From positions 928,001 through 992,000 of the forward strand of contig CBDCUI010000009.1 in assembly GCA_965222615.1 (NCBI GenBank): DNA of 64,000 bases, given 5' to 3'. Within the stretch, counting starts at the first letter, position 1, and every line of letters begins with the position of its first letter. The notes under the pieces were generated by a model that saw nothing but the letters and a program-made list of their open reading frames with translations, was not told the DNA's origin and made no database searches. This DNA comes from Gammaproteobacteria bacterium (lineage in GTDB: Bacteria; Pseudomonadota; Gammaproteobacteria; UBA4575). The position numbers were made by a program, and so were the translations under genes. This document shows positions 1 through 14,915 of the stretch, piece after piece.

Positions 1-801
1 AACTGCGCCTCCTGAAGATATACCACAAAAGATCCCTTCTTCTTTACCGAGCCGTCGCATCATGTCTTCGGCTTCCTGCTGGGTCACTTCCATGACTTGA
101 TCAACCGCCTTCGCATCAAATATTTTCGGAATATATTCTTCAGGCCATTTACGTATGCCTGGAATCTTAGAGCCCTCTGATGGCTCCACACCAATGATTT
201 GAATCTTGGGATTTACTTCCTTTAAATATTTCGATGTACCCATTATCGTACCCGTGGTTCCCATTGAACTTACAAAGTGAGTAATCTTTCCATCCGTGTC
301 TCGCCAAATTTCAGGACCGGTTGTTTGATAATGTGCTAGTGGGTTATCCGGATTGGCAAATTGATCTAACACTTTACCTTTACCGTCTGCTTGCATTTGT
401 AGAGCCAAATCACGTGCACCTTCCATGCCTTCTTCGGCAGTAACTAATATTAATTCTGCACCAAAGGCTTGCATGGATTGACGACGTTCAAGGCTCATAT
501 TTTCTGGCATAATTAGTTTTAAGTTAAAGCCTTTCATTGCCGCTACCATTGCGAGTGCAATTCCGGTGTTACCACTAGTCGCTTCGATTAAATTATCTCC
601 AGGTTTAATATCACCGCGTTTCTCTGCCTCAACAATCATGCTTAAAGCCGGTCGATCTTTCACCGATCCCGCAGGATTATTGCCTTCTAACTTTCCCAAT
701 ACCAAATTAGAAGTTTTTCCTGGAAGACGTTGCAAGCGCACAAGCGGTGTATTGCCAACGAATTTTTCAATAGTTGGGACCTCTATAGTAGGAACACTCA
801 T
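1..801 (-). CDS. cysM: Cysteine synthase B (3' end runs off the window)
   Basis: Manual translation from ATG at 801: MSVPTIEVPTIEKFVGNTPLVRLQ...KLEGNNPAGSVKDR (PLP Lys)...EATSGNTG...DQFAN...MGTTGT; not in the ORF track because it is truncated. Confidence 0.9.
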   Translation of the reverse strand, partial: MSVPTIEVPTIEKFVGNTPLVRLQRLPGKTSNLVLGKLEGNNPAGSVKDRPALSMIVEAEKRGDIKPGDNLIEATSGNTGIALAMVAAMKGFNLKLIMPENMSLERRQSMQAFGAELILVTAEEGMEGARDLALQMQADGKGKVLDQFANPDNPLAHYQTTGPEIWRDTDGKITHFVSSMGTTGTIMGTSKYLKEVNPKIQIIGVEPSEGSKIPGIRKWPEEYIPKIFDAKAVDQVMEVTQQEAEDMMRRLGKEEGIFCGISSGGAV

Positions 802-803
802 TT

Positions 804-1190
804 TCATTCCTCCAGTTTAATTATTAATGCCTGTGCTACAGCGTAATTTTTTTCATCTGAAATACTAATATGTATATCTAAATTATCTGCCTCAATTTCT
901 TCGGCAAATTCACTTGTAAATGCTAGCGATGGCTTGCCATGTTCATCATGCCGAACATACATATTACGCCAATTTACTTCACCTCGTATACCGGTTCCCA
1001 ATGCTTTTACAAAAGCTTCTTTTACTGCAAATCGTTTTGCAATAAATGCCACAGTATCATATGAATTCTCTAACTCTTTTAATTCTTCGTCATGCAAAAT
1101 CTTTGCTGCAAATTTACTTTCATAGCGATTATAGGTTTTTTCAATACGCGCTATTTCAACAATATCAATTCCAGTACCAATTATTTTCAT
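804..1190 (-). CDS. acpS: Holo-[acyl-carrier-protein] synthase
   Basis: GIDIVEI and AKRFAVKEAFVKALGTG motifs; follows pdxJ. Confidence 0.96.
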   Translation of the reverse strand: MKIIGTGIDIVEIARIEKTYNRYESKFAAKILHDEELKELENSYDTVAFIAKRFAVKEAFVKALGTGIRGEVNWRNMYVRHDEHGKPSLAFTSEFAEEIEADNLDIHISISDEKNYAVAQALIIKLEE

Positions 1191-1191
1191 A

Positions 1192-1926
1192 TTAGTTAAT
1201 CGTTTCTATTGTTTTTTTCATTTTTCTAACTGCTTCTTCTAATCCAACATATAATGCGTGTGCCACAATTGAATGGCCAATATTGAGTTCATACATGTTT
1301 TTTATACTTGCAATTGGTAATACATTTTCGTAATGCAGCCCGTGACCAGCATTTACCACCATACCTAGTGAATGTGCATACTTTGCCGCTTCTTTAATCC
1401 TATTCAATTCCTGTTGTTGATCGTTATTCATTGCGCTAGCATAAGTTCCCGTATGCAATTCTACAACTGTCGCGCCGGTTGCAGCAGAGGTTTCTACCAC
1501 TTTTTTATCAGGCTCAATGAACAGTGATACTGCGATGCCCGCTTCTTTTAATGCGACAACTAAATCCTTTAATCGAGCTTGATGCTTGATCACATCTAAG
1601 CCACCTTCAGTTGTAAGCTCTTGTCTTTTTTCAGGAACGATACAACAATTTTCAGGTTTGACATACAATGCAATATCACGCATCTCATCAGTTGCTGCCA
1701 TTTCTAAATTCATACTACTTTGAATTACCTGTTTAGCTAGATAAACATCTTCATCTTGAATATGCCGACGATCTTCACGTAAGTGCATCGTGATGCCATC
1801 GGCACCTGCACGTTCCGATAGTTCAATTGCTTGTTTTAAATCTGGGTAGGGAGTGAAACGAGCCTGACGAATTGTCATCACATGGTCGAGATTGACACCA
1901 AGCCTCACTTTAGGTTGAGCAGACAT
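1192..1926 (-). CDS. pdxJ: Pyridoxine 5'-phosphate synthase
   Basis: LGVNLDH, HLREDRRHIQ, NAGHGL, ELNIGHSI motifs. Confidence 0.97.
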   Translation of the reverse strand: MSAQPKVRLGVNLDHVMTIRQARFTPYPDLKQAIELSERAGADGITMHLREDRRHIQDEDVYLAKQVIQSSMNLEMAATDEMRDIALYVKPENCCIVPEKRQELTTEGGLDVIKHQARLKDLVVALKEAGIAVSLFIEPDKKVVETSAATGATVVELHTGTYASAMNNDQQQELNRIKEAAKYAHSLGMVVNAGHGLHYENVLPIASIKNMYELNIGHSIVAHALYVGLEEAVRKMKKTIETIN

Positions 1927-1961
1927 GTTATAAACAATGCTTTTAATTTCAATTGACAGAA

Positions 1962-2663
1962 TTATGTTTGCATAAATTGCAAGATTTCTCGACTATGTAA
2001 AGGTCTATTATTAAGATGCCAGTTTATAACCCCGCGCATTAGCCGCTTTGCTTCAACTAAACAAGATGCATCCATATTCATAGGAGATCGCAAGCCAAGC
2101 AAGGTAGCACCTTTGATTACATTCCAAGCTGAACTTTCTTGTTGTACTCTTGCAGGACCCAAACCCATATCATAGCGATAGACTTTATCTTTTTGAATTG
2201 GTGTTTCATGATCAACTTCCTTATCCAAAGAAAGGCCATGTCCCACTAAACCAAGTAATTCAATCTCAAATAAGCGCAATAATTTTTCTTGCTTATCGTC
2301 GTTATCAAGTGAGTGAAGAATATTTTCGTATAAGTCGAAAATCTCCCTGCTAGGAGATGACTTAGGAACAAGTTTGAGTATTAGCTCATTTAAATACAGC
2401 CCAAGAATATACATGTTTGGCAAGTTAATATGTTTTGCGCCTGCTGTTTCAATATTAGTAAGAGTAAAAAGATCGCCTTTGCCTCCCCATGAAATCAGCA
2501 AAGGTGTAAAAACTATTCCCATAGCTCCACTATTTTTCTTCTTAGACCCTCGAAACACACAGGAAATCAAACCATGCTCTGGGGTGAGCATCTCCATAAT
2601 CTGACTTGTTTCACGATATTGCCTGCTATGTATGCAATAAGCTTGTTCTAATTGTACTCTCAT
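1962..2663 (-). CDS. recO: DNA repair protein RecO
   Basis: HSRQYRETS, LYLNELI, LRLFEIELL; era-recO-pdxJ synteny. Confidence 0.93.
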   Translation of the reverse strand: MRVQLEQAYCIHSRQYRETSQIMEMLTPEHGLISCVFRGSKKKNSGAMGIVFTPLLISWGGKGDLFTLTNIETAGAKHINLPNMYILGLYLNELILKLVPKSSPSREIFDLYENILHSLDNDDKQEKLLRLFEIELLGLVGHGLSLDKEVDHETPIQKDKVYRYDMGLGPARVQQESSAWNVIKGATLLGLRSPMNMDASCLVEAKRLMRGVINWHLNNRPLHSREILQFMQT

Positions 2664-2678
2664 ATTCTTTTAAAACTT

Positions 2679-3566
2679 TTATTGCTCAAACTGAGCCACA
2701 ATATTTTGTTGATCCTGCCAATTCTGTTTAACCTTAACCCAAGTTTTGAGCATAACTTTTTTATTAAAAATTTTTTCTAATTTTCTACGTGAATGTTCGC
2801 CAATAGCCTTCAATTTCGAACCTTTTTTACCGATGACAATGGCCTTCTGACTTTCCTTTTCCACCCAAATAATTACACTTGTTGTTAACATATTCTTCTC
2901 GAATTCAAGCTCTTCTACTTCAGTGTAAATTGCATAGGGTAATTCTTTTTGTAGTTGCAACATTGCAGCTCCACGTACCACTTCACTTACTATAAACGAA
3001 TCATCTCGATCCCATTTAATATCTTTAGGAAACAAAAATTCTGAATCTGGACAATATTTTGATAGTTCATCTACAAGCATGTTTAAATCGCTATCATACA
3101 TAGCAGAGAGAGGGATAATGCTTGCAAAATTATGGCGAGCTTTTACTTTATCTAAAATAGGTAACAACTGAGATTTTTGTTTTAGCTTGTCTACTTTGTT
3201 AACTATCAGAATAACAGGTAGATTTGTTTGTTTTACGTGTTCTAATAAATACTCATCCTCTTCAGTCCAGAAATCTAATTCAACCAACATCAAAATAACA
3301 TCGACGTCTTGTATAGATGAGAGCGCATTGCGTACTAAAACTTTATTCATTAAACGCTTGTTACCCAGCTGAACCCCTGGCGTATCTACTAAAATTATTT
3401 GACATTTATCTAGGGTTAAAATCCCTCGAATAGTATGACGCGTAGTTTGCGGCTTGTGTGTCGTTATAGATAGCTGCTCATCAAGCAATTTATTGAACAA
3501 AGTAGACTTACCAACATTTGCACGTCCGATGATTGCGACAAAACCACACTTTGTTTTGTTAGCCAT
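2679..3566 (-). CDS. era: GTPase Era
   Basis: GRANVGKS, PQTTR, DTPG, NKVD and KH-domain VIGKKG. Confidence 0.97.
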   Translation of the reverse strand: MANKTKCGFVAIIGRANVGKSTLFNKLLDEQLSITTHKPQTTRHTIRGILTLDKCQIILVDTPGVQLGNKRLMNKVLVRNALSSIQDVDVILMLVELDFWTEEDEYLLEHVKQTNLPVILIVNKVDKLKQKSQLLPILDKVKARHNFASIIPLSAMYDSDLNMLVDELSKYCPDSEFLFPKDIKWDRDDSFIVSEVVRGAAMLQLQKELPYAIYTEVEELEFEKNMLTTSVIIWVEKESQKAIVIGKKGSKLKAIGEHSRRKLEKIFNKKVMLKTWVKVKQNWQDQQNIVAQFEQ

Positions 3567-3574
3567 TAAAAGTA

Positions 3575-4246
3575 TTAAAAAGATTTTTGACTAACCACAT
3601 AGGTATACGCCTTTTCTGCAGCATCTTGTTCTGCTCGACGTCGACTTTTCCCTGAACCCTCAAATTTACTCTCACAATTTTCAATAATACATTCTACAGT
3701 AAACGTCTCATTACCTGATTTGCCTAGCTTACCTTGTAGTACATATTTTGGTAATGCCACTCCCTTTGACTGCAAAAATTCTTGTAGTCGAGTCTTGGCA
3801 TCTTTGAGTTCATCAACTGTAGGAATATTCCGCAAACGTTCAGAATAAATAGCTTGTATAAATTTCTTCGCTACATCAAGACCTTCAGATAAATACAAAG
3901 CACCAATTAAAGCTTCCAGAGCATCTGCCAAAATGGAATCACGTTGATTCCCACCTGATTTCAGCTCTCCTGGACCTAATACAATTAGCTCATTAAGATC
4001 CTGCTCAAGTGCAATTTCCGCAAGGGTTTCCTTTCTTACTAAATGGGCTCGCAAACGCGTGAGATCGCCCTCTGGATAATCTGGGTAATTACTAAATAAC
4101 CACTCAGCAATAAAAAACCCCAACAATGAATCACCAAGATATTCTAAGCGTTCATTGTTTTGTGAACTGACGCTACGATGAGTAAGCGCTTGGCGATAAT
4201 AATCTGAATCTAAGAAGTGGTTACCTAATTGCTTAACAAGACCCAA
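3575..4246 (-). CDS. rnc: Ribonuclease III (TTG start)
   Basis: NERLEYLGDS signature, DALEALIGA, C-terminal dsRBD. Confidence 0.97.
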   Translation of the reverse strand: MGLVKQLGNHFLDSDYYRQALTHRSVSSQNNERLEYLGDSLLGFFIAEWLFSNYPDYPEGDLTRLRAHLVRKETLAEIALEQDLNELIVLGPGELKSGGNQRDSILADALEALIGALYLSEGLDVAKKFIQAIYSERLRNIPTVDELKDAKTRLQEFLQSKGVALPKYVLQGKLGKSGNETFTVECIIENCESKFEGSGKSRRRAEQDAAEKAYTYVVSQKSF

Positions 4247-4250
4247 GGTA

Positions 4251-4628
4251 TTATTTTTTTGTATTTATAGCTTGGCGTTGATCAAAATTCACGACGGCAT
4301 CAAGATTAGCAATAATCGGCACACGAAACTCGTAATCTAACCCAAAATTAACTACTCCTTGCTTCCCTTTTTCATAAACAAAAGCTTCCTTCCCTACGCC
4401 GTAAATACTATTAATGTTGAGACGTTTATCAATAGCATCCCATAACTGACTTTTTGTCGGCTTTTTGCCTTGCATTTCTGCTGCTATGTCTTCGACAATT
4501 TTTTCTGTAGCAAAGCCCTTATAATAGACGGGAAATAACTTTATCCCAATCATAATAAGAAAACCGATCAAAGCTAAAAAGAATACCCAGAATACAAATG
4601 ATGCGCCCTGCTGTTTTTTAAAATTCAT
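4251..4628 (-). CDS. DUF4845-like pilin-like membrane protein
   Basis: ATG at 4628 with AAGGGAG SD; KKQQG followed by a hydrophobic helix; usual position between lepB and rnc. Confidence 0.8.
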   Translation of the reverse strand: MNFKKQQGASFVFWVFFLALIGFLIMIGIKLFPVYYKGFATEKIVEDIAAEMQGKKPTKSQLWDAIDKRLNINSIYGVGKEAFVYEKGKQGVVNFGLDYEFRVPIIANLDAVVNFDQRQAINTKK

Positions 4629-4647
4629 AATATGATCTCCCTTAACT

Positions 4648-5493
4648 CTAAATAATTTTCTTACCAATTCGTTTAAAGTTATACTTTTTACCCTTAAAAT
4701 CAGCATTCATCCACACTAAAAATGCGCGGCCAACTAAATTCTCTTCTGGAACAAACCCCCAAATACGACTATCACTACTATGATCTCGGTTATCACCCAT
4801 CACAAAATAATGATTATCAGGGACACTAAATTCACCCGGTGTGTTGTAACGTGTTTGCTTGATTAATATATCATGTAACACAGTTTCTAAATCTTCCTTC
4901 AAAATAATGGCACCATTCATTACACTATTTGCTCCCGAACCTTTATAGATACCATTTTTTTGCTGCCCAATTTGTTTGCCGTTAATATATAAGGTCTTAT
5001 CTTTATATGTAATGCGATCACCAGGCAGACCGATAACGCGCTTAATATAGTCGTCCGATGGGTCTTTTGGAAAACGAAATACAGCTACATCCCCACGCTG
5101 AGGGGATCCTGTATCGAGTATTTTTGTATGCAATACAGGCAGCCTCACTCCATAGGAAAACTTGTTCACTAAAATAAAATCACCATGCAACAATGTTGGC
5201 ATCATGGAACCGGACGGTATACGAAAAGGCTCTGCAATAAAGGAACGAAGTATTAGTACTACTAACAATATCGGAAAAAAAGATTTACATATCTCAATAT
5301 ACCAGGGCTCTCTATAGGTTTTATTAGATTTGCGAACATCACCTTGCCCATGACTTGCGTTATAGGATTTTTCCAAAGCCCGTTTCCTGCGTTTATCTCC
5401 TAAAAACATTTTATCCGCTAACCAGATCAACCCAGTTAAGACTGTACCTAAAACCAAGAACAGCTCGAGATCAAAATGAAAATTAAATTGCAT
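4648..5493 (-). CDS. lepB: Signal peptidase I
   Basis: EPFRIPSGSMMPTL (catalytic Ser), YIKRVIGLPGD (Lys), GDNRDHSSDSR. Confidence 0.97.
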   Translation of the reverse strand: MQFNFHFDLELFLVLGTVLTGLIWLADKMFLGDKRRKRALEKSYNASHGQGDVRKSNKTYREPWYIEICKSFFPILLVVLILRSFIAEPFRIPSGSMMPTLLHGDFILVNKFSYGVRLPVLHTKILDTGSPQRGDVAVFRFPKDPSDDYIKRVIGLPGDRITYKDKTLYINGKQIGQQKNGIYKGSGANSVMNGAIILKEDLETVLHDILIKQTRYNTPGEFSVPDNHYFVMGDNRDHSSDSRIWGFVPEENLVGRAFLVWMNADFKGKKYNFKRIGKKII

Positions 5494-5982
5494 GATTAGA
5501 TTTCAACGATAATAAGTTTTGACAAGACATCCCTGCCCACTGATTTGTACGATATTCAACCGAAATAAGTAAATATTTTAGACCCTGATTCACTCGGGGC
5601 CCAAGTATAGAAGCTAAATCTCGCCAGTGCGAGCTTACTTTCGACTATTCGTAATATATTTTAACCAGGATGACACCTTGCGCATACGTATTATGGACAA
5701 AACTAAGCATAGTGTAGCTATTTGGATGACCCAATGTACATAATCCTCCATATATTGTTCCTAACGTAACTCATATGGCCTTGGTTCTGACTCGACTCTG
5801 CCAGCCTTATCTTTAAACATGCTTCAGCATTGCAATCTCCCTCTCAGCTCATTTCAGCTTTACCACTAGGCTGACCTTTAAAAATTTACCTTAAAATCGC
5901 TTACCCCCCTACACTATGACATCTGTAGGCCATACTTTACCGTTAACCGATAGAAGGTAACATATATAAATAGATTCTTTGT

Positions 5983-7536
5983 TTATAGAATTTTTAAAAA
6001 CTCAACTAATTCATCAATTTCTTGTTCAGAGAGTTCAAGGGCTGGTAATTCGTGAGGTACTTTGTTTGTATCAGGCGGATTATTATAAAACTTGACGACT
6101 TCCTTTAACGTTTTAAATCTACCATCATGCATATAAGGCGAGGTTAATAAAACATTGCGCAATGATGGCACTTTAAACGCACCTGCAGCAGTAGATGGTA
6201 AATTTACTTTCTTGCCAAACTCTACATGTTCACACTTATTCGACGCATCACTAAATTTACCACTGCAGTTGAACACATCATATGCAACGGCTTGTATTCC
6301 AAACAAGTACCCATAATCAAAGTTGTTATCCGAGTCGGGACCCGTTCCTATATTATGAAATCCATGATTTGTGAATAAAGGTCCGTTATGGCAGCGAAGA
6401 CAATGTGTTTTTTCAACATCAAAAAATAAACGCAGTCCATTATATTGTTGTACGGTTAAATTAGTGTTTTTATTTTTACGTATTAAATAGACAGCATCAT
6501 CAAATTCAGATGGAGTATGCTGGATTGTTGTTAAGTAAGCAGCAAGTGATTTTCCTATTAAAACAAAAACAGAGTTAATTGCAATTTTCTGTTCTTCAGT
6601 CAAATTATGCCAATTTGCTTTTTCTGTCTTATTACCAAAAGGTGATGCATCTTTTGGAAAGCTAACAAATTCTGACTCATCAAACGTGTTATCTAACTCC
6701 TTAAGCAAGGATCGATAATTTCCATTAGACAATAGATAATGGACAACAGCTGCACGATTGTTATCCATTTCACCTTGAGTCTCTATCGGTGTCACGGCTT
6801 GAGCCCAAAGTGAGTCACGCCTACCATCCCAGTAATACCACTGAGAATGGGATATACCAGTTAATGCAGGGGCATGGCGTTTTGTTTCAGCGGTGCCAAA
6901 AGATTTCTTGCGACCATCACTAAAGCCAAGTTTTGGCTTGTGGCAAGTAGAACAGCTCACCGTATTAGAACGACTCAGTTTGGTATCAAAAAAAAGTTTC
7001 TGCCCGAGTGATATAGCTGCTTGATGGTAAAGATATTTATTGGTGGGGTCTTGTGTAGCTTCAACTTGATCGATATGCATAGAAGATACTAATGCTTGAT
7101 CAATCGCATTTTTTTCTGAGAAAGCTTTATGATTTTGGACCTCAAGAGGGAAAATTACGGTATCGAGACCTTCAGGCCCAGTAAAGGTGAGTCGAATCTC
7201 CCACTCGCCCCTCATATTAAAAAGCACACCACTTAAAAGTAGCTTGCCTTTGTCTATTGCACGCGTGAACCTGGGCTCACTTGGTAGTCCATGACCATGT
7301 GCAGGCATTCCACCATCAATAGATACTTGTCCAGGTATAAAAAGTTTCCCATTTTTTGTTTTAAAACTTACATACCAATTGTGCATAACACGTAAAGGAA
7401 TATAAGTTTGCTCATTAGTAAATGTAAGTGTGTATACATCTCTTTCAGATGTAATAACTTTCTGATAAGCAATACTATTAAGAGGAAATAGTAAAAAAAT
7501 CACACCCACACAAATAAGTGTATTTTTCATAAGCAT
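5983..7536 (-). CDS. Secreted di-heme cytochrome c peroxidase/MauG-family protein with N-terminal YtkA/FixH-like domain
   Basis: Signal peptide; GGMPAHGHGLP...FNMRGEW; CSTCH and CLRCH heme motifs; WDGRRDSLWAQA; FKVPSLRNV..TSPYMHDG. Confidence 0.85.
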   Translation of the reverse strand: MLMKNTLICVGVIFLLFPLNSIAYQKVITSERDVYTLTFTNEQTYIPLRVMHNWYVSFKTKNGKLFIPGQVSIDGGMPAHGHGLPSEPRFTRAIDKGKLLLSGVLFNMRGEWEIRLTFTGPEGLDTVIFPLEVQNHKAFSEKNAIDQALVSSMHIDQVEATQDPTNKYLYHQAAISLGQKLFFDTKLSRSNTVSCSTCHKPKLGFSDGRKKSFGTAETKRHAPALTGISHSQWYYWDGRRDSLWAQAVTPIETQGEMDNNRAAVVHYLLSNGNYRSLLKELDNTFDESEFVSFPKDASPFGNKTEKANWHNLTEEQKIAINSVFVLIGKSLAAYLTTIQHTPSEFDDAVYLIRKNKNTNLTVQQYNGLRLFFDVEKTHCLRCHNGPLFTNHGFHNIGTGPDSDNNFDYGYLFGIQAVAYDVFNCSGKFSDASNKCEHVEFGKKVNLPSTAAGAFKVPSLRNVLLTSPYMHDGRFKTLKEVVKFYNNPPDTNKVPHELPALELSEQEIDELVEFLKIL

Positions 7537-7685
7537 TTTAAAACCATGTAAAACTTCATGTGGTGCAGTTAACAGTTATGCAATTATAGAGTAGTTCTTG
7601 TTTGTTTCGTTTGTTAAGTTCACAAAATAGGAAGGAGAGTAATACCTAACGGGTATTACAAAAAATAATTGCAAAGGAATGCATT

Positions 7686-10600
7686 ATGGGGAACTACGTT
7701 TCTAATAAGCTATACAGCTTTACAAAATTACCAACAAATTTTCTTTTAGCTTGCATACTCTTTTTATTTTTCATTACTCAGTCATATGTGCTTGCCGGTC
7801 CGGAAGATCCACAAGATGGAGGTGCATGGGGACCGATAACGAGTTGGCCGATGATTCCTGTTTCTGCGGCCAACTTACCTGATGGGCGAATTATTGCCTG
7901 GGCATCCAATGAACGTACTACATTTCCTTCTTCAGTAAATAATGAGTCAACTTATACTGCCGTTTGGGATCCCCAAAGTAATTCTTTTATTGAAATACCT
8001 CACCCCAGTCATGACATGTTTTGCTCTCATCATGTCATGCTTGAGGATGGGAACGTGTTTGTAAGTGGTGGTCGGAATCAAGGTAACACTCCTTTTACAA
8101 GTATATTCAATCATCAAACTAATCAATGGGAACAACTTGCAAATATGAACCGTGGCCGCTGGTATCCCACATCCGTTGCCCTGGCTGATGGCACAATCAT
8201 GACAGCGATTGGTTCCGGCGGAGGCAACACTGCAGAGCTATGGGATGGTACTTCAAGTTGGAATTTATTAGGCGGTCTTAACTTCGATGTTCCAATACTC
8301 AATTATGGCCATGGCGAAAGAGACTGGTGGCCATTATTGCATCTAGCACCAGATGGGCAAATCTTTCATTCCGGACCAACTCCAGACATGCATATGATTA
8401 ATACTTCTGGTAACGGTTCAATTACGCAAACCAATACCCATACGGATTGGTATCCAAAACACGGTGCTACAGTGATGTATGACGAAGGGAAATTGTTAAC
8501 TGCTGGCGGCTGGGTTGGCGCAAATAATGTTTCAAGTTCTAATCAAGCGATGGTAATCGACTTGAACGGTCCTAGCCCACAAATCACACCCATCGCTTCC
8601 ATGCATCATGCACGTAAATTTCAAAATGGCGTTACCTTACCCAATGGCGAAGTATTAATTGTCGGCGGTAATACTTCAGGTCTTAAATTTGATGATTCAG
8701 GCACAATTTACTCAGTAGAGATTTGGAATCCTGACACTCAATTATGGCGTGAAGGCGCATCGATGGATGTACCTAGAAACTACCATTCTGTCGCACTGTT
8801 AATGTTAGATGGAAGAGTGTATTCAGCCGGAGGCGGATTATGTGGCTGTAGTGCTGATCATCAAGATCACCAGATTTATTCTCCACCCTATTTATTTAAT
8901 GCGGATGGATCACATGCATCGCGTCCCGTAATTCTTCAAGTTCCCGGAGTTGTTGAAGCAGGTCAGACTATAAGCGTAGCAGCAACTGCAGGGTTAGCAG
9001 AATTTTCTTTAGTGAAAATGTCCTCCACCACACATGCAATTAATACTGACTTGCGTTATTTGCCTGTCACCATGAACGAGGTTACACCAGGCAATTATCA
9101 ATTAAACTTACATGCAAATACGAACGTGTTGACTCCCGGTTATTGGATGTTATTTGCTTTGAATGCACAAGGCACACCATCAATTGCCAAAGCAATTCGT
9201 GTCTCAACACAAGGTTTGCAATCTGGCCCGCCAACAATTAAACAAATGAGCGATCTTGCAAATCGCATACAGGAAACGGTTAACTTAACTTTAGTAACTA
9301 GTGATCCCGATGGTGAAGCATTAACATTCACGGCTACAAATTTACCACCAGGTCTCACACTCAATTCACTCAGTGGAACGATTACCGGTGCACCGAACCA
9401 AGCCGGGACCTACAACACTACGATTACGGTTGCCGATAGTTCTGGTGGAACGGATGCAACGAGCTTTACTTGGAATGTTCTAGCTGGCGCTGGACAGCAA
9501 GGTGTGCGCTATGAATATTACCAAGGCGACTGGAATACTTTACCTAATTTTGATCAATTGCAGCCTATATCGACAGGTATCATTCCAAACTTCAGTATTT
9601 CTCCAGCTGCACAGGCAGATTACTTTGGATTCCGTTATAGCAGTCAAATAACCATTACTACTGCTGGAAATTATACTTTTTATACCAACTCAGATGATGG
9701 CAGCCAATTATTTATTAATGATCAACTTGTCGTAGACAATAACGGCTTGCATGCCCCTCAAGAACGATCGGGTTCAATTACTTTGGCTGCGGGCAACCAT
9801 GATATTCGAGTTACTTTTTTTGAAAAAACAGGTGGTGCTAATTTAGTAGTCAGCTACGCCGGCCCAAACATAGCTAAACAAACAATACCCAATTCGGTTC
9901 TTTTTGTCCCTACCTTTCAAGGTGTTCAATCGACAAGATACGTACGCCTTACGGCATTGTCGGAAATCAATGCAAAACCTTGGACATCTGCTGCGGAAAT
10001 TAATTTATTAGATACTAATGGACAAGCACTAACGAGATCAGCATGGACCGTAAGCGCAAGCAGCATGGAATTGACCGGAGAAAACGGAGCGGCTTCGAAT
10101 GCCATCGATGGAGATGTAAATACGATTTGGCATACGGAATGGTTCAGCCAAGCAGGTGATGACAATGATCCAGCGCATCCACATCATTTTATAATTGATT
10201 TGGGTGCCGTAAATGATATTTCTGGACTTACTTACTTACCAAGACCCGGCGCAGGTAATGGCACAATCAAAGCCTATGAAATTTATGTGAGCGGCGATGG
10301 AATAAACTGGGGCACACCTATCCATGTCGGTGAATTCACATCGACAGGTTTAAATACGGTGACCTTTGTGGATGAACCACAACCAACTAACAATGCTCCT
10401 ACAATTGTCAATCCTGGCACACAAAATAATTCAAGCGGTGACACGATTGCGCTATCAATAAGTGCAGCGGACAGTGATGGTGATATTCTTACTTACAGTG
10501 CTACTGGTTTGCCAACTGGCTTGTCGGTTAACTCAGCTACCGGCTTGATTTCGGGAACAGTAACAACGGCACAAACTTTTAATACCACGATTACCGTATC

Positions 10601-13600
10601 GGATGGACAAGCAAGTGCAAACGCCAACTTTAGTTGGCAGGTACTTTCATCAAATAGTGCCCCTGTGGTTACCTCACCGGGCGATCAAAACAACCAAGTG
10701 GATGACACGATATCACTCACAATTACAGCTACGGATATTGATAACGACCCACTGACTTATCAAGCAACGGGCTTACCGACAGGCTTAGTCATTAACGCCA
10801 GCACTGGTGTAATTAGCGGTACGCTTACAGAAGTGGGACAGTACACCACACAAGTCAGTGTGAGTGATGGACAAGAGGCGACAGTAATACAATTTACTTG
10901 GTCTGTACTAGTTAATAATTTACCGCCAACACTAGACCCAATTGCAAATCAAAATAATGTAGTGGGCGATAGCATATCTTTACAATTATCTGCAACAGAT
11001 CCGAATAACGACCCCATCGCCTATAGCGCCACCGGCTTACCAGATGGATTAAACCTGAATACACAAACAGGATTGATAAGCGGGCAAACATCGCTTGCCA
11101 ATGTATTTAATGTAAGCGTTTCCGTTAGTGACGGAGAATTAGCTAGTAACCGTAGTTTTACTTGGACCGTCACTGCAGCACCGGAGCCTATCGTAATTAA
11201 TCCACTGTCTTCTGCACCAGTAGAGACAGGAGTCACGCAGAACTATGTCGGCTCCGCACAAGGTGATGGAGTACTTGAATATAGTTGGTTATTTGGTGAC
11301 GGTAGTCCGGCCACCAGCTTTTCAACCGATTCAAGTGCTTCGCATGTGTTTAATGCACCCGGTCGTTATCTGGTTACCTTAACGGTGAGAAACCAAACCT
11401 CACAGGCCAGCACGACATTCACGCAAGCGGTACATTTGCCTCTAGCAAATGGTACAGCAAGTGGCGATGCAACAATTGTCTATGAAGATACTACAGGGGT
11501 TGCGCGAGTTTGGGCCGTGAATCCAGATAATGACACCGTTACTGTTATCAATGTTGCTACTCAAACAAAAATTACGGAAATTGCAACTGGTACAAAACCG
11601 GTTTCCTTAGTGCTTGATGCGGCAAATAATGAACTGCTTGTTGTTAATAAAAAATCAGCTTCTATTACACGCATATCATTGGCAACTTTAGCTTTAGTCG
11701 ATGAAATAAGCTTACCTAGAGGATCGCAACCGCATGGTATCGCGATAAATGCAGGAACTGGATATATTTATGTAGCTTTAGAAGCATTAAAGCAAGTTAT
11801 TCAAATTGATTCGATTACTAATCAAATTGTCAATACTCTAAACTTATCCAACAACATCCGGCATTTAACACTATCGCCTGATGGATCGGTTTTGTATGCA
11901 CCATTATTTAAAACCCCTAAAATTCCAGGAGAAGATACTTCCTCTCCATCTGTACTCGACGGCAATAATCAAATCGTCGGTGGCATAGTTAATCGTATTT
12001 TGACCGACAGTTTCACACTGGATAGTCCTATTGTCTTACCTCATAGTGATGCACTTGTCTCGGAGCATTCGGGACCCGGTCTACCAAACTATCTACGCAA
12101 TTTGTCGATTTCCCCAGATGGAATTAATGCCTATGTTCCATCCAAACAAGATAATATTTTAGCCGGAACCGCACGCAGCTCGACATTACTTGATCATGAT
12201 CACACAGTACGTGCCATTGTTTCTCAAGTTGATTTAGTTAATGCCATGGCTTTGTTAAATAACCGAGTCGACATTGACAATTCCAGTGTTGCTTCTGCAG
12301 CAGCTTATGGCCCATTTGGAAATTATTTATTTGTTGCACTTGAAGGAAACCGCATGGTGTCTATTGTAGATGCCTATCGAGGCGAAGAATTGTTTAGATT
12401 TGTAACAGGTCGCGCACCGCAAGGATTAGTGACTAGCCCAGATGGCACTATGTTGTTTGTACATAACTTTTTAGATCGTACGGTGAGTATTCATGATATA
12501 TCAAAAATTACTCTTGAAGGTGTCAACCAACTAACTAATGTTGCTTCGATTCCCTTAGTCGCGAATGAAAAATTGTCACCAACAGTTTTACTTGGTAAGC
12601 AACATTTCTACGATGCACTAGATCCACGTTTAACTCTGGAAGTCTATATGAGTTGTGCAAGCTGTCATAACGATGGTGATGACGACGGACGCATTTGGGA
12701 CTTCACTCAATTTGGTGAAGGCTTGAGAAGTACAATCAGTCTGATTGGTCAAGCAGGTGCTTTACATGGCCCGGTACACTGGACCGGTAACTTTGATGAG
12801 ATTCAGGATTTTGAAGGACAAATTCGATCTTTCGCCGGTGGATTGGGACTAATGGATGATGTCGACTTTAATCAAGGTACTCGTTCGCAACCATTGGGAG
12901 ATACAAAGGCCGGAGTTAGTCCAAACTTAGATGCACTGGCGGCGTACTTGGAATCTCTATCCACTGTGGAACCCAGCCCTTATCGCGAAAGTGATGGTGA
13001 ACTCACCGCGAATGCACAAGCCGGTAAACAATTATTTGCCGATAATAACTGTGCCGATTGTCATAACGGTAGTCGCTTTAGCGATAGCGCACTGGATACA
13101 CGCCATGATGTAGGAACCCTAGATGCGGATAGCGGACAACGTTTGGGAGGCTTGTTGGATGGTTTGGATACCCCAACCCTTAGAGGTTTATGGATGAGCG
13201 CCCCTTACTTACACGATGGTTCGCAAGATACTCTTGAAGGCGCTATTCTTTCGCATACCACTTTGAACATCAGCACATCTGATGCTGCCTTAATCGCTGA
13301 ATATCTATTGCAGCTGGACGAAGAAGAAATTGCGCCTACAACACAAGAAACTTTATTGCAATCAATTTCAATACCCGCTGTTGGTACAGATTGGGTACCG
13401 GTAACGGTTACCGGATCTTACACCGACATGGTTGTCGTCTGTTCCATTGTGCAAACAAATAACTTTGTGCCACAAATCACACGTGTACGCGTAACTGCAA
13501 ATAATCAATTCGAAGTAAGACTACAAAGTCCATCTAATAATATTTTGTTAAATGAAAGAGTAGACTGTGTAGTTGCCGAGCAAGGCAATTGGTTATTACC

Positions 13601-14207
13601 TAATGGTGATCAATTTGAAGCGAGGCTGTATCAAAGTTCGATTACGGATAGAAAAGGTTCATGGATAGGTGAGCAACAAAACTACTTAAATAGCTACATT
13701 AATCCGGTAGTGATTGGCCAAGTCATGTCTTATAACGATTCGAATTGGTCAACATTTTGGAACCAAGGTTCTGCGCGTAGAAATATTCCATCCAATACAG
13801 TGATAAAAACAGGCAAGATGGTAGGTGAAGATCCAAATACAACGCGTAGTACCGAGACAATCGGCTATATGGTGTTTGAGCGCAATTCAGGAACGATAAA
13901 TGGAATTGAATTCGAAACAGCGGTTGGAACCGATAGCATACGAGGATGGAATAATTCTGCATCTGGAAATACTTATAGCCTACTCAATTCATATGCAACC
14001 ACATCGATTTCAATTGCATCGATCACAGCCATGGATGGCAATAATGGTGGTTGGTCTACAATAAGAGGACCGGTTTTTGGCAATCAATTAACTATAAGCA
14101 TCGATGAAGACCAAGTGTTGGATACAGAAAGAAATCATACCACGGAGCAAGTTAGTTATTTAATAATGAGTGAAAGCGGAGTGGTACCTCTTACAAAAGT
14201 GGAGTAA
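7686..14207 (+). CDS. 2173-aa secreted multidomain protein: galactose-oxidase-like (AA5) copper-radical oxidase + Ig-like (He_PIG) x4 + PA14 + F5/8C (CBM32-like) + PKD + YVTN-type beta-propeller + di-heme cytochrome c + C-terminal beta-rich repeats
   Basis: HDMFC113, RWY160P, RNY366H367S, GGGLCG, STTH450; four LPxGLx(L/V/I)N..TG.I(S/T)G repeats; SDDGSQLFIND; AIDGD.NTIWH; WLFGDG; VWAVNPDNDTVTVI; CASCH and CADCH; TPTLRG..APYLHDGS. Confidence 0.88.
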   Translation: MGNYVSNKLYSFTKLPTNFLLACILFLFFITQSYVLAGPEDPQDGGAWGPITSWPMIPVSAANLPDGRIIAWASNERTTFPSSVNNESTYTAVWDPQSNSFIEIPHPSHDMFCSHHVMLEDGNVFVSGGRNQGNTPFTSIFNHQTNQWEQLANMNRGRWYPTSVALADGTIMTAIGSGGGNTAELWDGTSSWNLLGGLNFDVPILNYGHGERDWWPLLHLAPDGQIFHSGPTPDMHMINTSGNGSITQTNTHTDWYPKHGATVMYDEGKLLTAGGWVGANNVSSSNQAMVIDLNGPSPQITPIASMHHARKFQNGVTLPNGEVLIVGGNTSGLKFDDSGTIYSVEIWNPDTQLWREGASMDVPRNYHSVALLMLDGRVYSAGGGLCGCSADHQDHQIYSPPYLFNADGSHASRPVILQVPGVVEAGQTISVAATAGLAEFSLVKMSSTTHAINTDLRYLPVTMNEVTPGNYQLNLHANTNVLTPGYWMLFALNAQGTPSIAKAIRVSTQGLQSGPPTIKQMSDLANRIQETVNLTLVTSDPDGEALTFTATNLPPGLTLNSLSGTITGAPNQAGTYNTTITVADSSGGTDATSFTWNVLAGAGQQGVRYEYYQGDWNTLPNFDQLQPISTGIIPNFSISPAAQADYFGFRYSSQITITTAGNYTFYTNSDDGSQLFINDQLVVDNNGLHAPQERSGSITLAAGNHDIRVTFFEKTGGANLVVSYAGPNIAKQTIPNSVLFVPTFQGVQSTRYVRLTALSEINAKPWTSAAEINLLDTNGQALTRSAWTVSASSMELTGENGAASNAIDGDVNTIWHTEWFSQAGDDNDPAHPHHFIIDLGAVNDISGLTYLPRPGAGNGTIKAYEIYVSGDGINWGTPIHVGEFTSTGLNTVTFVDEPQPTNNAPTIVNPGTQNNSSGDTIALSISAADSDGDILTYSATGLPTGLSVNSATGLISGTVTTAQTFNTTITVSDGQASANANFSWQVLSSNSAPVVTSPGDQNNQVDDTISLTITATDIDNDPLTYQATGLPTGLVINASTGVISGTLTEVGQYTTQVSVSDGQEATVIQFTWSVLVNNLPPTLDPIANQNNVVGDSISLQLSATDPNNDPIAYSATGLPDGLNLNTQTGLISGQTSLANVFNVSVSVSDGELASNRSFTWTVTAAPEPIVINPLSSAPVETGVTQNYVGSAQGDGVLEYSWLFGDGSPATSFSTDSSASHVFNAPGRYLVTLTVRNQTSQASTTFTQAVHLPLANGTASGDATIVYEDTTGVARVWAVNPDNDTVTVINVATQTKITEIATGTKPVSLVLDAANNELLVVNKKSASITRISLATLALVDEISLPRGSQPHGIAINAGTGYIYVALEALKQVIQIDSITNQIVNTLNLSNNIRHLTLSPDGSVLYAPLFKTPKIPGEDTSSPSVLDGNNQIVGGIVNRILTDSFTLDSPIVLPHSDALVSEHSGPGLPNYLRNLSISPDGINAYVPSKQDNILAGTARSSTLLDHDHTVRAIVSQVDLVNAMALLNNRVDIDNSSVASAAAYGPFGNYLFVALEGNRMVSIVDAYRGEELFRFVTGRAPQGLVTSPDGTMLFVHNFLDRTVSIHDISKITLEGVNQLTNVASIPLVANEKLSPTVLLGKQHFYDALDPRLTLEVYMSCASCHNDGDDDGRIWDFTQFGEGLRSTISLIGQAGALHGPVHWTGNFDEIQDFEGQIRSFAGGLGLMDDVDFNQGTRSQPLGDTKAGVSPNLDALAAYLESLSTVEPSPYRESDGELTANAQAGKQLFADNNCADCHNGSRFSDSALDTRHDVGTLDADSGQRLGGLLDGLDTPTLRGLWMSAPYLHDGSQDTLEGAILSHTTLNISTSDAALIAEYLLQLDEEEIAPTTQETLLQSISIPAVGTDWVPVTVTGSYTDMVVVCSIVQTNNFVPQITRVRVTANNQFEVRLQSPSNNILLNERVDCVVAEQGNWLLPNGDQFEARLYQSSITDRKGSWIGEQQNYLNSYINPVVIGQVMSYNDSNWSTFWNQGSARRNIPSNTVIKTGKMVGEDPNTTRSTETIGYMVFERNSGTINGIEFETAVGTDSIRGWNNSASGNTYSLLNSYATTSISIASITAMDGNNGGWSTIRGPVFGNQLTISIDEDQVLDTERNHTTEQVSYLIMSESGVVPLTKVE

Positions 14208-14217
14208 TACTCGTTAT

Positions 14218-14433
14218 ATGGCTTCGCCATTATTAAACGGTTCGTATCTTCCCTGATGCGGGCTCTCACTCGTGTATCCTTACACTCGCCCGGCGATTTT
14301 GTGAACCTCTGTTCGGCTCCACTCTATCCCCACCAACGTCTTTAAAAAAGAAACTTCACTTTTGGTGAAAGCTTCTTTTCATAAATAGAGAATGGCTTCG
14401 CCATGCTTAACTTGCGACTAATACCCAGTCGCA
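14218..14433. repeat. Two copies of the hairpin+TTAA(C/T)TTGCG-type repeat (14218-14236, 14392-14433) flanking a GC-richer multi-hairpin segment
   Basis: ATGGC-TTC-GCCAT hairpin twice; 14218-14236 is the exact reverse complement of 34296-34314. Confidence 0.7.
14344..14379. terminator. Probable bidirectional intrinsic terminator between the giant ORF and tRNA-Pro
   Basis: AAAAGAAACTTCAC-TTTTG-GTGAAAGCTTCTTTT imperfect stem with A and T tracts, between convergent genes. Confidence 0.5.
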
Positions 14434-14437
14434 TGTG

Positions 14438-14514
14438 TGGTCGGGGTGAGAGGATTTGAACCTCCGACCACCGCAACCCCATTGCGGTGCGCTACCAGGC
14501 TGCGCTACACCCCG
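14438..14514 (-). tRNA. tRNA-Pro(GGG)
   Basis: Reverse complement CGGGGTGTAGCGCAGCCTGGTAGCGCA-CCGCA-ATGGGGT-TGCGG-...GGTTCAAATCC...CCGACCA, 77 nt; usual site after ihfA-merR. Confidence 0.96.
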
Positions 14515-14555
14515 ATATTAGAAAAAACCGAATATGAATTAAATTATAGAGTGAT

Positions 14556-14915
14556 TTATTGACGTTTTAAAACTTGCAGCAAGTCTTCTAGTTCTACGCG
14601 CATCTGATGAACAAGTTGCTGACTTTGATTGTTATCTTCTTTTGCTGAAGATCCAGCGAGCTTAAGTCTCGCACCACCAATAGTGTAGCCTTGCTCATAC
14701 AAGAGACTACGAATTTGGCGAATTAGAATGACATCATGACGTTGGTAATAACGACGGTTGCCACGTCTTTTTACTGGCTTTAATGAAGGGAATTCTTGTT
14801 CCCAATACCGCAACACATGTGGTTTAACCCCACATAACTCACTCACTTCACCAATTGTAAAATAGCGCTTCCCAGGAATCGCCGGCAATTCATTATTGTT
14901 ATTAATTTCCAGCAT
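14556..14915 (-). CDS. MerR-family regulator (ihfA-linked)
   Basis: [25 protein letters not shown]; conserved position after ihfA. Confidence 0.93.

Follow-up and report, generated by a model that had tools for sequence, protein, structure and literature searches.

Maturation of the Streptomyces lividans copper-radical oxidase GlxA needs both a Sco copper chaperone and the DyP-type peroxidase DtpA (PMC4736821), and in fungi a tandem Perox-AlcOx arrangement pairs an AA5_2 alcohol oxidase with a haem peroxidase (PMC9770985). The copper-binding protein MbnP owes its site of His, Met and kynurenine to MbnH (PMC11951088), and in B. subtilis CuA assembly draws on YtkA (CtaK) and on the YtkA domain of YcnJ (PMC13344008). 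Here we describe a two-gene locus in a 64,000-nucleotide stretch of DNA from a Gammaproteobacteria bacterium (GCA_965222615.1, contig CBDCUI010000009.1, positions 928,001 to 992,000; hereafter the window, meaning the whole stretch that was analysed). One gene encodes P0002, a 2173-residue protein with a galactose-oxidase-type domain, and the other encodes P0001, a 517-residue protein that joins a YtkA-like domain to a MauG-type di-haem domain (Table 1). The pairing of such genes recurs in other genomes and points to an undescribed route of loading or activating a copper enzyme. A preliminary description of the locus had reported two exported-type proteins transcribed divergently from a 149-bp gap, with which the coordinates of the open reading frames (ORFs) and the hydrophobic, signal-like N termini of both products, judged from sequence with no predictor, agree.

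The oxidase domain of P0002 looks catalytically competent, judging by its fold matches and conserved residues. Residues 41–507 matched galactose oxidases in the PDB with E values from 3.3e-101 (9g8h, ‘Galactose oxidase’) to 2.7e-70 (the classical enzyme, 1gof). Pfam matches to GO-like_E_set (64.6 bits), Glyoxal_oxid_N (44.8 bits) and Kelch_6 (49.3 bits) were obtained, and P0002 has the Kelch propeller and C-terminal E-set domain that the AA5 fold requires. The motifs HDMFC, GRWY, PRNYHS and STTH, which hold Cys113, Tyr160, Tyr366, His367 and His450, align to the same motifs of 9g8h, and these five residues were invariant in 67 of 67 aligned oxidase domains from many phyla. We take them, from the galactose oxidase literature, to be the thioether pair, the axial tyrosine and the two histidine copper ligands. 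A literature search found no relevant paper naming PDB entries 9g8h or 9g43. Behind the oxidase domain stretches a series of domains that ends in a tail for which language-model features give a place near H-type lectin clusters (score 0.96; a lead only). Searches with the family of these giant oxidases returned 1211 proteins at E ≤ 0.001 and, counted by hand among the matches listed, 101 of 120 had a haem domain (CCP_MauG or RoxA-like). Three loci (L068, L076 and L088) carry a tandem pair of giant oxidase genes.

P0001 had been read as a YtkA-like domain with an MPAHGHG motif fused to a CcP/MauG domain with two CXXCH motifs, and this reading holds. The protein scored 121.3 bits with Pfam CCP_MauG (PF03150), above the cut-off of 25.6, and its two CXXCH motifs (CSTCH at residue 195 and CLRCH at residue 379) were invariant in 117 of 117 family members. 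Pfam YtkA was matched by the N-terminal domain of P0001 itself only under the cut-off (see below), but at E ≤ 0.01 by all 18 aligned homologous domains (best E value 2.4e-14). An AlphaFold2 model of P0001 (predicted local distance difference test (pLDDT) 87.9, predicted template modelling score (pTM) 0.87) consists of an eight-stranded β-sandwich at residues 25–133 (pLDDT ~87–98) followed by a helical di-haem domain. MauG chains came top in a fold search (E = 5.1e-13), with BthA and MbnH (6e1c, a PDB entry entitled ‘associated with microbial copper homeostasis’) also among the matches. Tyr484 aligns with Tyr294 of MauG and was kept in all 117 members; it is the putative sixth ligand of the second haem, as in the MauG-type subgroup comprising MauG, BthA and MbnH. 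The peroxide-binding pocket (Trp236, Gln246, Pro250, Glu256 and Met257) was likewise complete in every member. We considered P0001 as MauG proper or as MbnH and rejected both assignments. We regard it as a separate MauG-type subfamily because its scores fall short of the NCBIfam cut-offs for MauG (TIGR03791; 130.8 versus 443.85 bits) and MbnH (TIGR04039; 133.3 versus 362.85 bits).

The N-terminal domain of the partner has features of a copper-binding domain. Met77, His80 and His82 were kept in 117 of 117 family members, and the wider set of Trp54, Met77, His80, His82, Met108 and Trp112 was kept in 103 of 103 domains from both of the gene contexts described below, save for one gap. The earlier proposal of a partner that combines copper-binding features with a MauG-type oxidant is supported by the invariant Met/His residues and by the alignment of Tyr484 with the MauG tyrosine. 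P0001 gave no Pfam MbnP match, and the top PDB match of the YtkA-domain profile was 9ll2, ‘Copper resistance protein’, a non-significant lead (E = 0.76). The partner family as a whole comprises 1844 proteins at E ≤ 0.001.

We examined the pairing in other genomes from both sides. A scan of a genome collection with the oxidase-domain alignment yielded 131 relatives, from which 79 loci were kept, and a metagenome scan with the partner alignment yielded at least 587 relatives, from which 80 loci were kept; L029 duplicates the contig of G022 and was counted once, and L115, L116, L117 and L137, being near-copies of a single arrangement, are not independent. A YtkA gene, a di-haem gene or both lay directly beside the giant gene at 23 of the 79 loci, and at 16 of the 43 for which at least 2 kb was readable on both sides. 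When flanking ORFs were clustered, the partner was the only widely shared neighbour family (16 loci, versus 4 for the runner-up). By record title, the linked loci belong to Gammaproteobacteria (Woeseiaceae, Lysobacterales, Cellvibrionales and Methylococcales), Myxococcota and one Gemmatimonadota. Linkage therefore recurs across genomes, as the preliminary description had anticipated, but the divergent synteny that it emphasized does not: head-to-head order is not the conserved feature of the pairing. The 22 linked loci with a scored oxidase gene had the partner upstream in 9 (7 on the same strand, 2 divergent) and downstream in 13, fused in 14 and split in 8. Twenty of them were co-directional, and divergent order was found in the window, L029 and L039.

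The two genes are also inherited together. The oxidase domain occurred in 5 of 61 related genomes, and a YtkA/CCP gene was adjacent in 4 of the 5. In two of these genomes (G000 and G022) the partner adjoins the giant gene divergently; in two others (G020 and G035) the giant gene is directly preceded on its own strand by separate genes for a YtkA protein (139 amino acids (aa)) and a di-haem protein (~410 aa); and in the fifth (G007) giant and partner are both present, on different contigs. Within an unbiased sample of 400 genomes of the class, in which kin are not independent and the oxidase tally takes in the unpublished genome G075, 14 encoded the oxidase domain and 20 a member of the partner family. 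The genomes with giants of at least 1700 aa (G000, G007, G297, G326 and G124) had exactly the five best partner scores among the 400, and the genes were adjacent in G000, G297 and G124. Two further genomes whose giants have no adjacent partner, G435 and G436, encode one elsewhere (E = 4.5e-200 and E = 6.5e-153). Quick trees of the oxidase domain and of the partner di-haem domain agree in their groupings of loci, and place the unlinked genes of G007 with the linked pair of G022. We conclude that a functional link between the two genes is highly probable, and that the two-gene module proposed earlier is a conserved neighbourhood, far beyond chance.

The partner family has a second context. Giant genes were adjacent at 15 of the 80 partner metagenome loci, 35 lay in a cytochrome c oxidase context and 30 in neither, many of these 30 being short contigs. 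The preliminary description had missed the cytochrome c oxidase context. The genome of the window itself has a paralogous split pair, a 144-aa YtkA protein and a 426-aa di-haem protein, at the end of a cytochrome c oxidase operon that encodes haem O synthase, CoxB with a di-haem c extension, CtaD, two COX3 proteins, COX4 and a 215-aa ORF without a family match. The order COX4, the 215-aa ORF, YtkA and di-haem gene was present at 7 of 8 paralogue loci of relatives and at 35 of the 80 metagenome loci. Pairs in the cytochrome-oxidase context were split in 35 of 35 cases, and fused partners occurred solely next to giants or where the context is unknown. The common factor of the cytochrome c oxidase and copper-radical oxidase contexts is copper. 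Other neighbours of giant genes point the same way. In a Verrucomicrobiales record, a fusion joining MbnP (Pfam E = 1.4e-21) to an MbnH-like, tyrosine-bearing di-haem domain ends one base before the giant gene (L083:8024-9823), and in three Acidobacteriota loci the giant gene is directly followed by one for a 326-aa protein whose N terminus carries a heavy-metal-binding domain (HMBD) (L063:11654-12634, also L061 and L070).

P0002 contains haems of its own. The preliminary description had noted a galactose-oxidase domain and two CXXCH motifs in one protein; both are present, but that account was incomplete, as the protein has many more domains and its CXXCH motifs (CASCH at residue 1657 and CADCH at residue 1789) belong to a hydrazine-synthase-like module in which a YVTN-type β-propeller precedes a di-haem cytochrome c part. 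With few exceptions, complete giants contain two CXXCH motifs and no more, spaced 128–138 residues apart (52 ORFs fitted this pattern), and 48 aligned propeller–di-haem modules showed 56% identity per column. The predicted structure of the module has a pLDDT of 91.3 and a pTM of 0.92, and its haem part matches the hydrazine synthase γ-subunit (5c2v_C, E = 9.3e-12) and bacterial peroxidases in sequence. Filing the module as a hydrazine synthase was rejected: P0002 scored 59.3 bits with the NCBIfam model of the hydrazine synthase β–γ fusion, far under its cut-off of 1250, and the likeness is at fold level only. In a profile–profile alignment, the invariant His1857 stands opposite Tyr484 of the partner and Tyr294 of MauG. 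Replacement of the tyrosine by histidine in BthA and MauG removes the bis-Fe(IV) signature and retains H2O2 reduction (PMC6405878). Because the invariant His1857 resembles these variants, the in-cis module would be expected to reduce H2O2 without forming bis-Fe(IV). This analogy suggests a division of labour, with peroxide consumption in cis and oxidative chemistry carried out in trans by the partner.

Established here are the gene architecture, the catalytic and ligand residues, the conserved linkage and the co-inheritance. From these we infer copper binding, copper transfer, an oxidative step and its target, and consider it an evenly balanced proposition that P0001 is a dedicated periplasmic module for copper loading and oxidative activation of the oxidase. 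The PA14, discoidin and lectin-like domains would let the giant bind glycan, and the oxidase domain would turn a primary alcohol of the bound sugar polymer into an aldehyde and H2O2, which the giant’s own propeller–di-haem module most likely consumes. The YtkA-like domain of the partner would bind copper at Met77, His80, His82 and Met108, flanked by Trp54 and Trp112, and pass it to the apo-oxidase in the periplasm. The MauG-type haems of the partner, with a His/Tyr-ligated second haem, would use H2O2 for an oxidative step that may alter the copper-binding domain of the partner itself, in the way that MbnH modifies MbnP, or may turn the Cu/Cys-Tyr site of the oxidase into its active radical form, as proposed by analogy with DtpA or the fungal peroxidases. 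A broader version, which we put forward tentatively and regard as rather less probable, is that a YtkA-like protein and a MauG-type di-haem enzyme form a widespread, uncharacterized periplasmic copper-insertion machine, a non-homologous analogue of MbnP/MbnH. The di-haem enzyme would make a protein-derived ligand, for example from the invariant Trp112 or Trp54, or oxidize a target, and different paralogues would serve CuA of cytochrome c oxidase and the Cys-Tyr copper site of a large family of giant oxidases, which would recycle their own H2O2 through the hydrazine-synthase-like haem module.

Several points weigh against this copper-loading and activation proposal. Galactose oxidase makes its cofactor autocatalytically with Cu and O2. 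The N-terminal domain of P0001 itself scored 18.2 bits with Pfam YtkA (PF13115; E = 0.0041), under the cut-off of 25.9. No adjacent partner was found at 27 of the 43 assessable loci, and a clade of giants with 22 rows (Methylococcaceae, Chloroflexota and Acidobacteriota) is without one; searches of three genomes of this clade found no partner-family member at all. Oxidase proteins of Rhodothermales, Entotheonella and Trueperaceae have neither partner nor haem module. Conversely, one genome (G147) has a fused partner and no oxidase domain at E ≤ 1e-40, and at three loci (L109, L125 and L129) a high-scoring partner has long flanks in which no giant occurs. The oxidase can thus work without the partner, because this clade of giants and whole genomes are partner-less, and these partner-less giants and giant-less partners mark the partner as an accessory that is common but tied to lineage, and that not every giant requires. 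The locus samples are also non-random, loci having been chosen by peptide patterns (two for the oxidase scan), and the hidden Markov models built here, with which all six-frame ORFs were searched, have arbitrary, author-set thresholds. Co-folding of the oxidase domain alignment with residues 24–517 of P0001 gave scores of 0.00 and 0.00, yielding no verdict.

H2O2 is produced by copper-radical oxidases (PMC11611005), and P0001 might instead be a scavenger that turns the oxidase’s H2O2 into water with respiratory electrons and so protects the periplasm, the YtkA-like domain serving for electron entry or docking. The intact peroxidatic pocket throughout the 117 members and the place of the family in Pfam CCP_MauG are what such a role would call for. 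Yet the giant already has a di-haem module of its own, the putative tyrosine ligand of the partner is of the MauG/BthA type and not the His/Met of classical peroxidases, and cytochrome oxidase operons contain the partner module but encode no source of H2O2. An MbnP–MbnH copper module takes the partner’s place in L083, and scavenging gives no explanation for the invariant Met/His site; we consider it unlikely. An electron relay, in which the oxidase acts as a dehydrogenase and its electrons run through the in-cis di-haem module and P0001 to the respiratory chain, would account for the fusion of c-type haems to an oxidoreductase and for the partner relatives in cytochrome c oxidase operons. To our knowledge, however, haem-coupled copper-radical oxidases have no precedent. 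Lectin/Ig spacers set the oxidase and the haems 700–1200 residues apart, the haem module is closer to the catalytic hydrazine synthase γ-subunit and to peroxidases than to simple electron carriers, and the partner-less giants retain it; a relay is accordingly quite improbable.

Alternatively, the partner could serve the propeller–di-haem module or the substrate, for instance by maturing the module or oxidizing the bound polymer, and not the copper site. MauG-type enzymes do act on protein substrates (PMC11951088), and every partner-linked giant of readable full length has two CXXCH motifs ~130 residues apart. However, the partner-less clade has the in-cis module just as often, in L107 the oxidase domain beside the partner is the last of its protein, which has no CXXCH in the readable part, and what the giant-oxidase and cytochrome oxidase contexts have in common is copper and not the in-cis module. 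We give this explanation as little credence as the relay. That the genes are chance neighbours, functionally unrelated, is suggested by the unrelated housekeeping operons that flank the pair in the window, but adjacency recurs in several phyla and in three different arrangements, and the partner is present in 5 of 5 giant-bearing genomes versus 20 of 400 overall, which makes this disfavoured explanation extremely improbable.

In the window, P0001 and P0002 form an ~8.4-kb insertion beside tRNA-Pro(GGG) that is missing at the same site in four of four relatives checked (G001, G002, G006 and G007), because pheT and lepB are 9.7 kb apart here versus ~1.0–1.3 kb in those relatives. The housekeeping operons that flank the pair are lepB-rnc-era-recO-pdxJ-acpS on one side and MerR-ihfA-pheTS-rplT-infC-thrS on the other; the G+C content of the two genes is somewhat above that of the left flank. 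No integrase was found at the insertion, and its border stretches (5494–5982 and 14208–14437) have no repeat of at least 10 nt in common, direct or inverted. Repeat searches within the borders yielded solely a 19-nt element, itself palindromic (ATGGC-TTC-GCCAT), that occurs twice between the P0002 stop codon and the tRNA (14218–14236 and 14392–14410). In the intergenic region, an inverted repeat noticed by eye, TAATACC-n5-GGTATTA near 7641–7659, lies ~27 nt 5′ of the P0002 start codon and may serve as an operator or form a 5′ hairpin. Scans for promoters and terminators across positions 5400–14700 found no more sites than in shuffled sequences. Elsewhere, Woeseiaceae-type loci (L031, L032 and L034; for example L034:7026-7535) have a 169-aa ORF without a family match just upstream of the YtkA gene, and Acidobacteriota loci (L079:6908-9574, also L072, L073 and L077) have an 888-aa protein with glucose/sorbosone-dehydrogenase, PKD and NPCBM domains upstream of the giant gene.

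Table 1 Features of the locus; positions are those of the window except for the last row, which gives a locus elsewhere in the genome
Feature	Position	Strand	Details
P0001, 517 aa: signal-like N terminus, YtkA-like β-sandwich and MauG-type di-haem domain	5983..7536	-	
Di-haem CCP/MauG domain of P0001, aa 160-517	5986..7059	-	CSTCH 6940-6954, CLRCH 6388-6402, Tyr484 6085-6087
YtkA-like domain of P0001, aa 25-135	7132..7464	-	Predicted β-sandwich; invariant Trp54, Met77, His80, His82, Met108, Trp112
MPAHGHG motif of P0001, aa 77-83	7288..7308	-	
Divergent intergenic region, 149 bp	7537..7685	.	Repeat spotted by eye
P0002, 2173-aa multidomain exported protein (predicted)	7686..14207	+	
AA5 galactose-oxidase-type copper-radical oxidase domain of P0002, aa 40-507	7803..9206	+	Cys113, Tyr160, Tyr366, His367, His450
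He_PIG, PA14, F5/8 type C (discoidin), three He_PIG and PKD domains of P0002, aa 515-1247	9228..11426	+	Pfam
YVTN-type β-propeller of P0002, aa 1255-~1625	11448..12560	+	Best fold match hydrazine synthase β 5c2v_B, E 9.8e-19
In-cis di-haem cytochrome c module of P0002, aa ~1626-1885	12561..13340	+	CASCH 12654-12668, CADCH 13050-13064
C-terminal 288 aa of P0002 without Pfam match	13341..14204	+	
tRNA-Pro(GGG) bordering the two-gene island	14438..14514	-	
Cytochrome c oxidase operon ending in 215-aa ORF, YtkA, MauG-type di-haem gene and 147-aa ORF	L028 (G000:C7:262000-277000), 222-9017		

Copper-radical oxidases are valued biocatalysts, and their loading or activation in bacteria is known only for Streptomyces GlxA. 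The locus suggests a different solution, compact in genetic terms and present in no fewer than three phyla (Pseudomonadota, Myxococcota and Gemmatimonadota). For two unrelated copper enzymes it also connects copper handling with an uncharacterized MauG-type subfamily, and it exposes a family of more than 1000 giant oxidase–haem fusion proteins without a described function. The copper-loading and activation hypothesis is directly testable by co-expression.

The preliminary description had not recognized the system as a characterized one. We likewise found no description of the oxidase–partner combination in the full-text literature, a coverage that leaves out most subscription journals and does not prove absence from print, and a term search of two reviews or papers on copper-radical oxidases found cytochromes unmentioned; but the description had overlooked a bacterial precedent, GlxA with Sco and DtpA. 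Like that system (PMC4736821), the present one has a bacterial copper-radical oxidase, here predicted to act on a glycan, together with a putative copper chaperone and haem peroxidase. It differs in that the candidate chaperone is YtkA-like and not Sco, the peroxidase is a di-haem c protein of the MauG type and not DyP, the two are fused or paired beside the oxidase gene, and the oxidase, 2173 aa long, includes a haem module. P0002 scored 168 bits with the NCBIfam GlxA model, versus a cut-off of 800, and no Sco or DyP family was found in P0001 or in the scanned neighbours in the window. With MbnP/MbnH the system shares a small β-rich domain with His/Met ligands, here predicted to bind copper, and conserved Trp, together with a MauG-like di-haem enzyme. 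In contrast to that pair, in which MbnH converts a Trp of MbnP to kynurenine (PMC11951088), the N-terminal domain here is YtkA-like and not MbnP, and the di-haem domain lies under the MbnH cut-off. The fungal Perox-AlcOx tandem resembles the locus in placing a copper-radical oxidase gene beside that of a cooperating haem peroxidase; it has eukaryotic hosts, no copper-binding domain and a peroxidase of another class, as the preliminary description had said and as the membership of P0001 in CCP_MauG affirms. A class II-type peroxidase with conserved head-to-head order was not found here, divergent order being the minority in bacteria. CtaK and the YtkA domain of YcnJ provide an extracytoplasmic YtkA fold implicated in CuA loading (PMC13344008), in keeping with the partner relatives in cytochrome c oxidase operons, whereas CtaK is a lipoprotein for which no di-haem partner is described, and the proposed target here is a copper-radical oxidase. 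The layout of the in-cis module, a propeller followed by a CCP-like di-haem domain, is that of the β- and γ-subunits of anammox hydrazine synthase (PDB 5c2v), but here there is no α-subunit and the module is fused to oxidase and lectin domains. The system thus works like GlxA/Sco/DtpA, MbnP/MbnH, the fungal Perox-AlcOx pairs and CtaK, but is a member of none of them.

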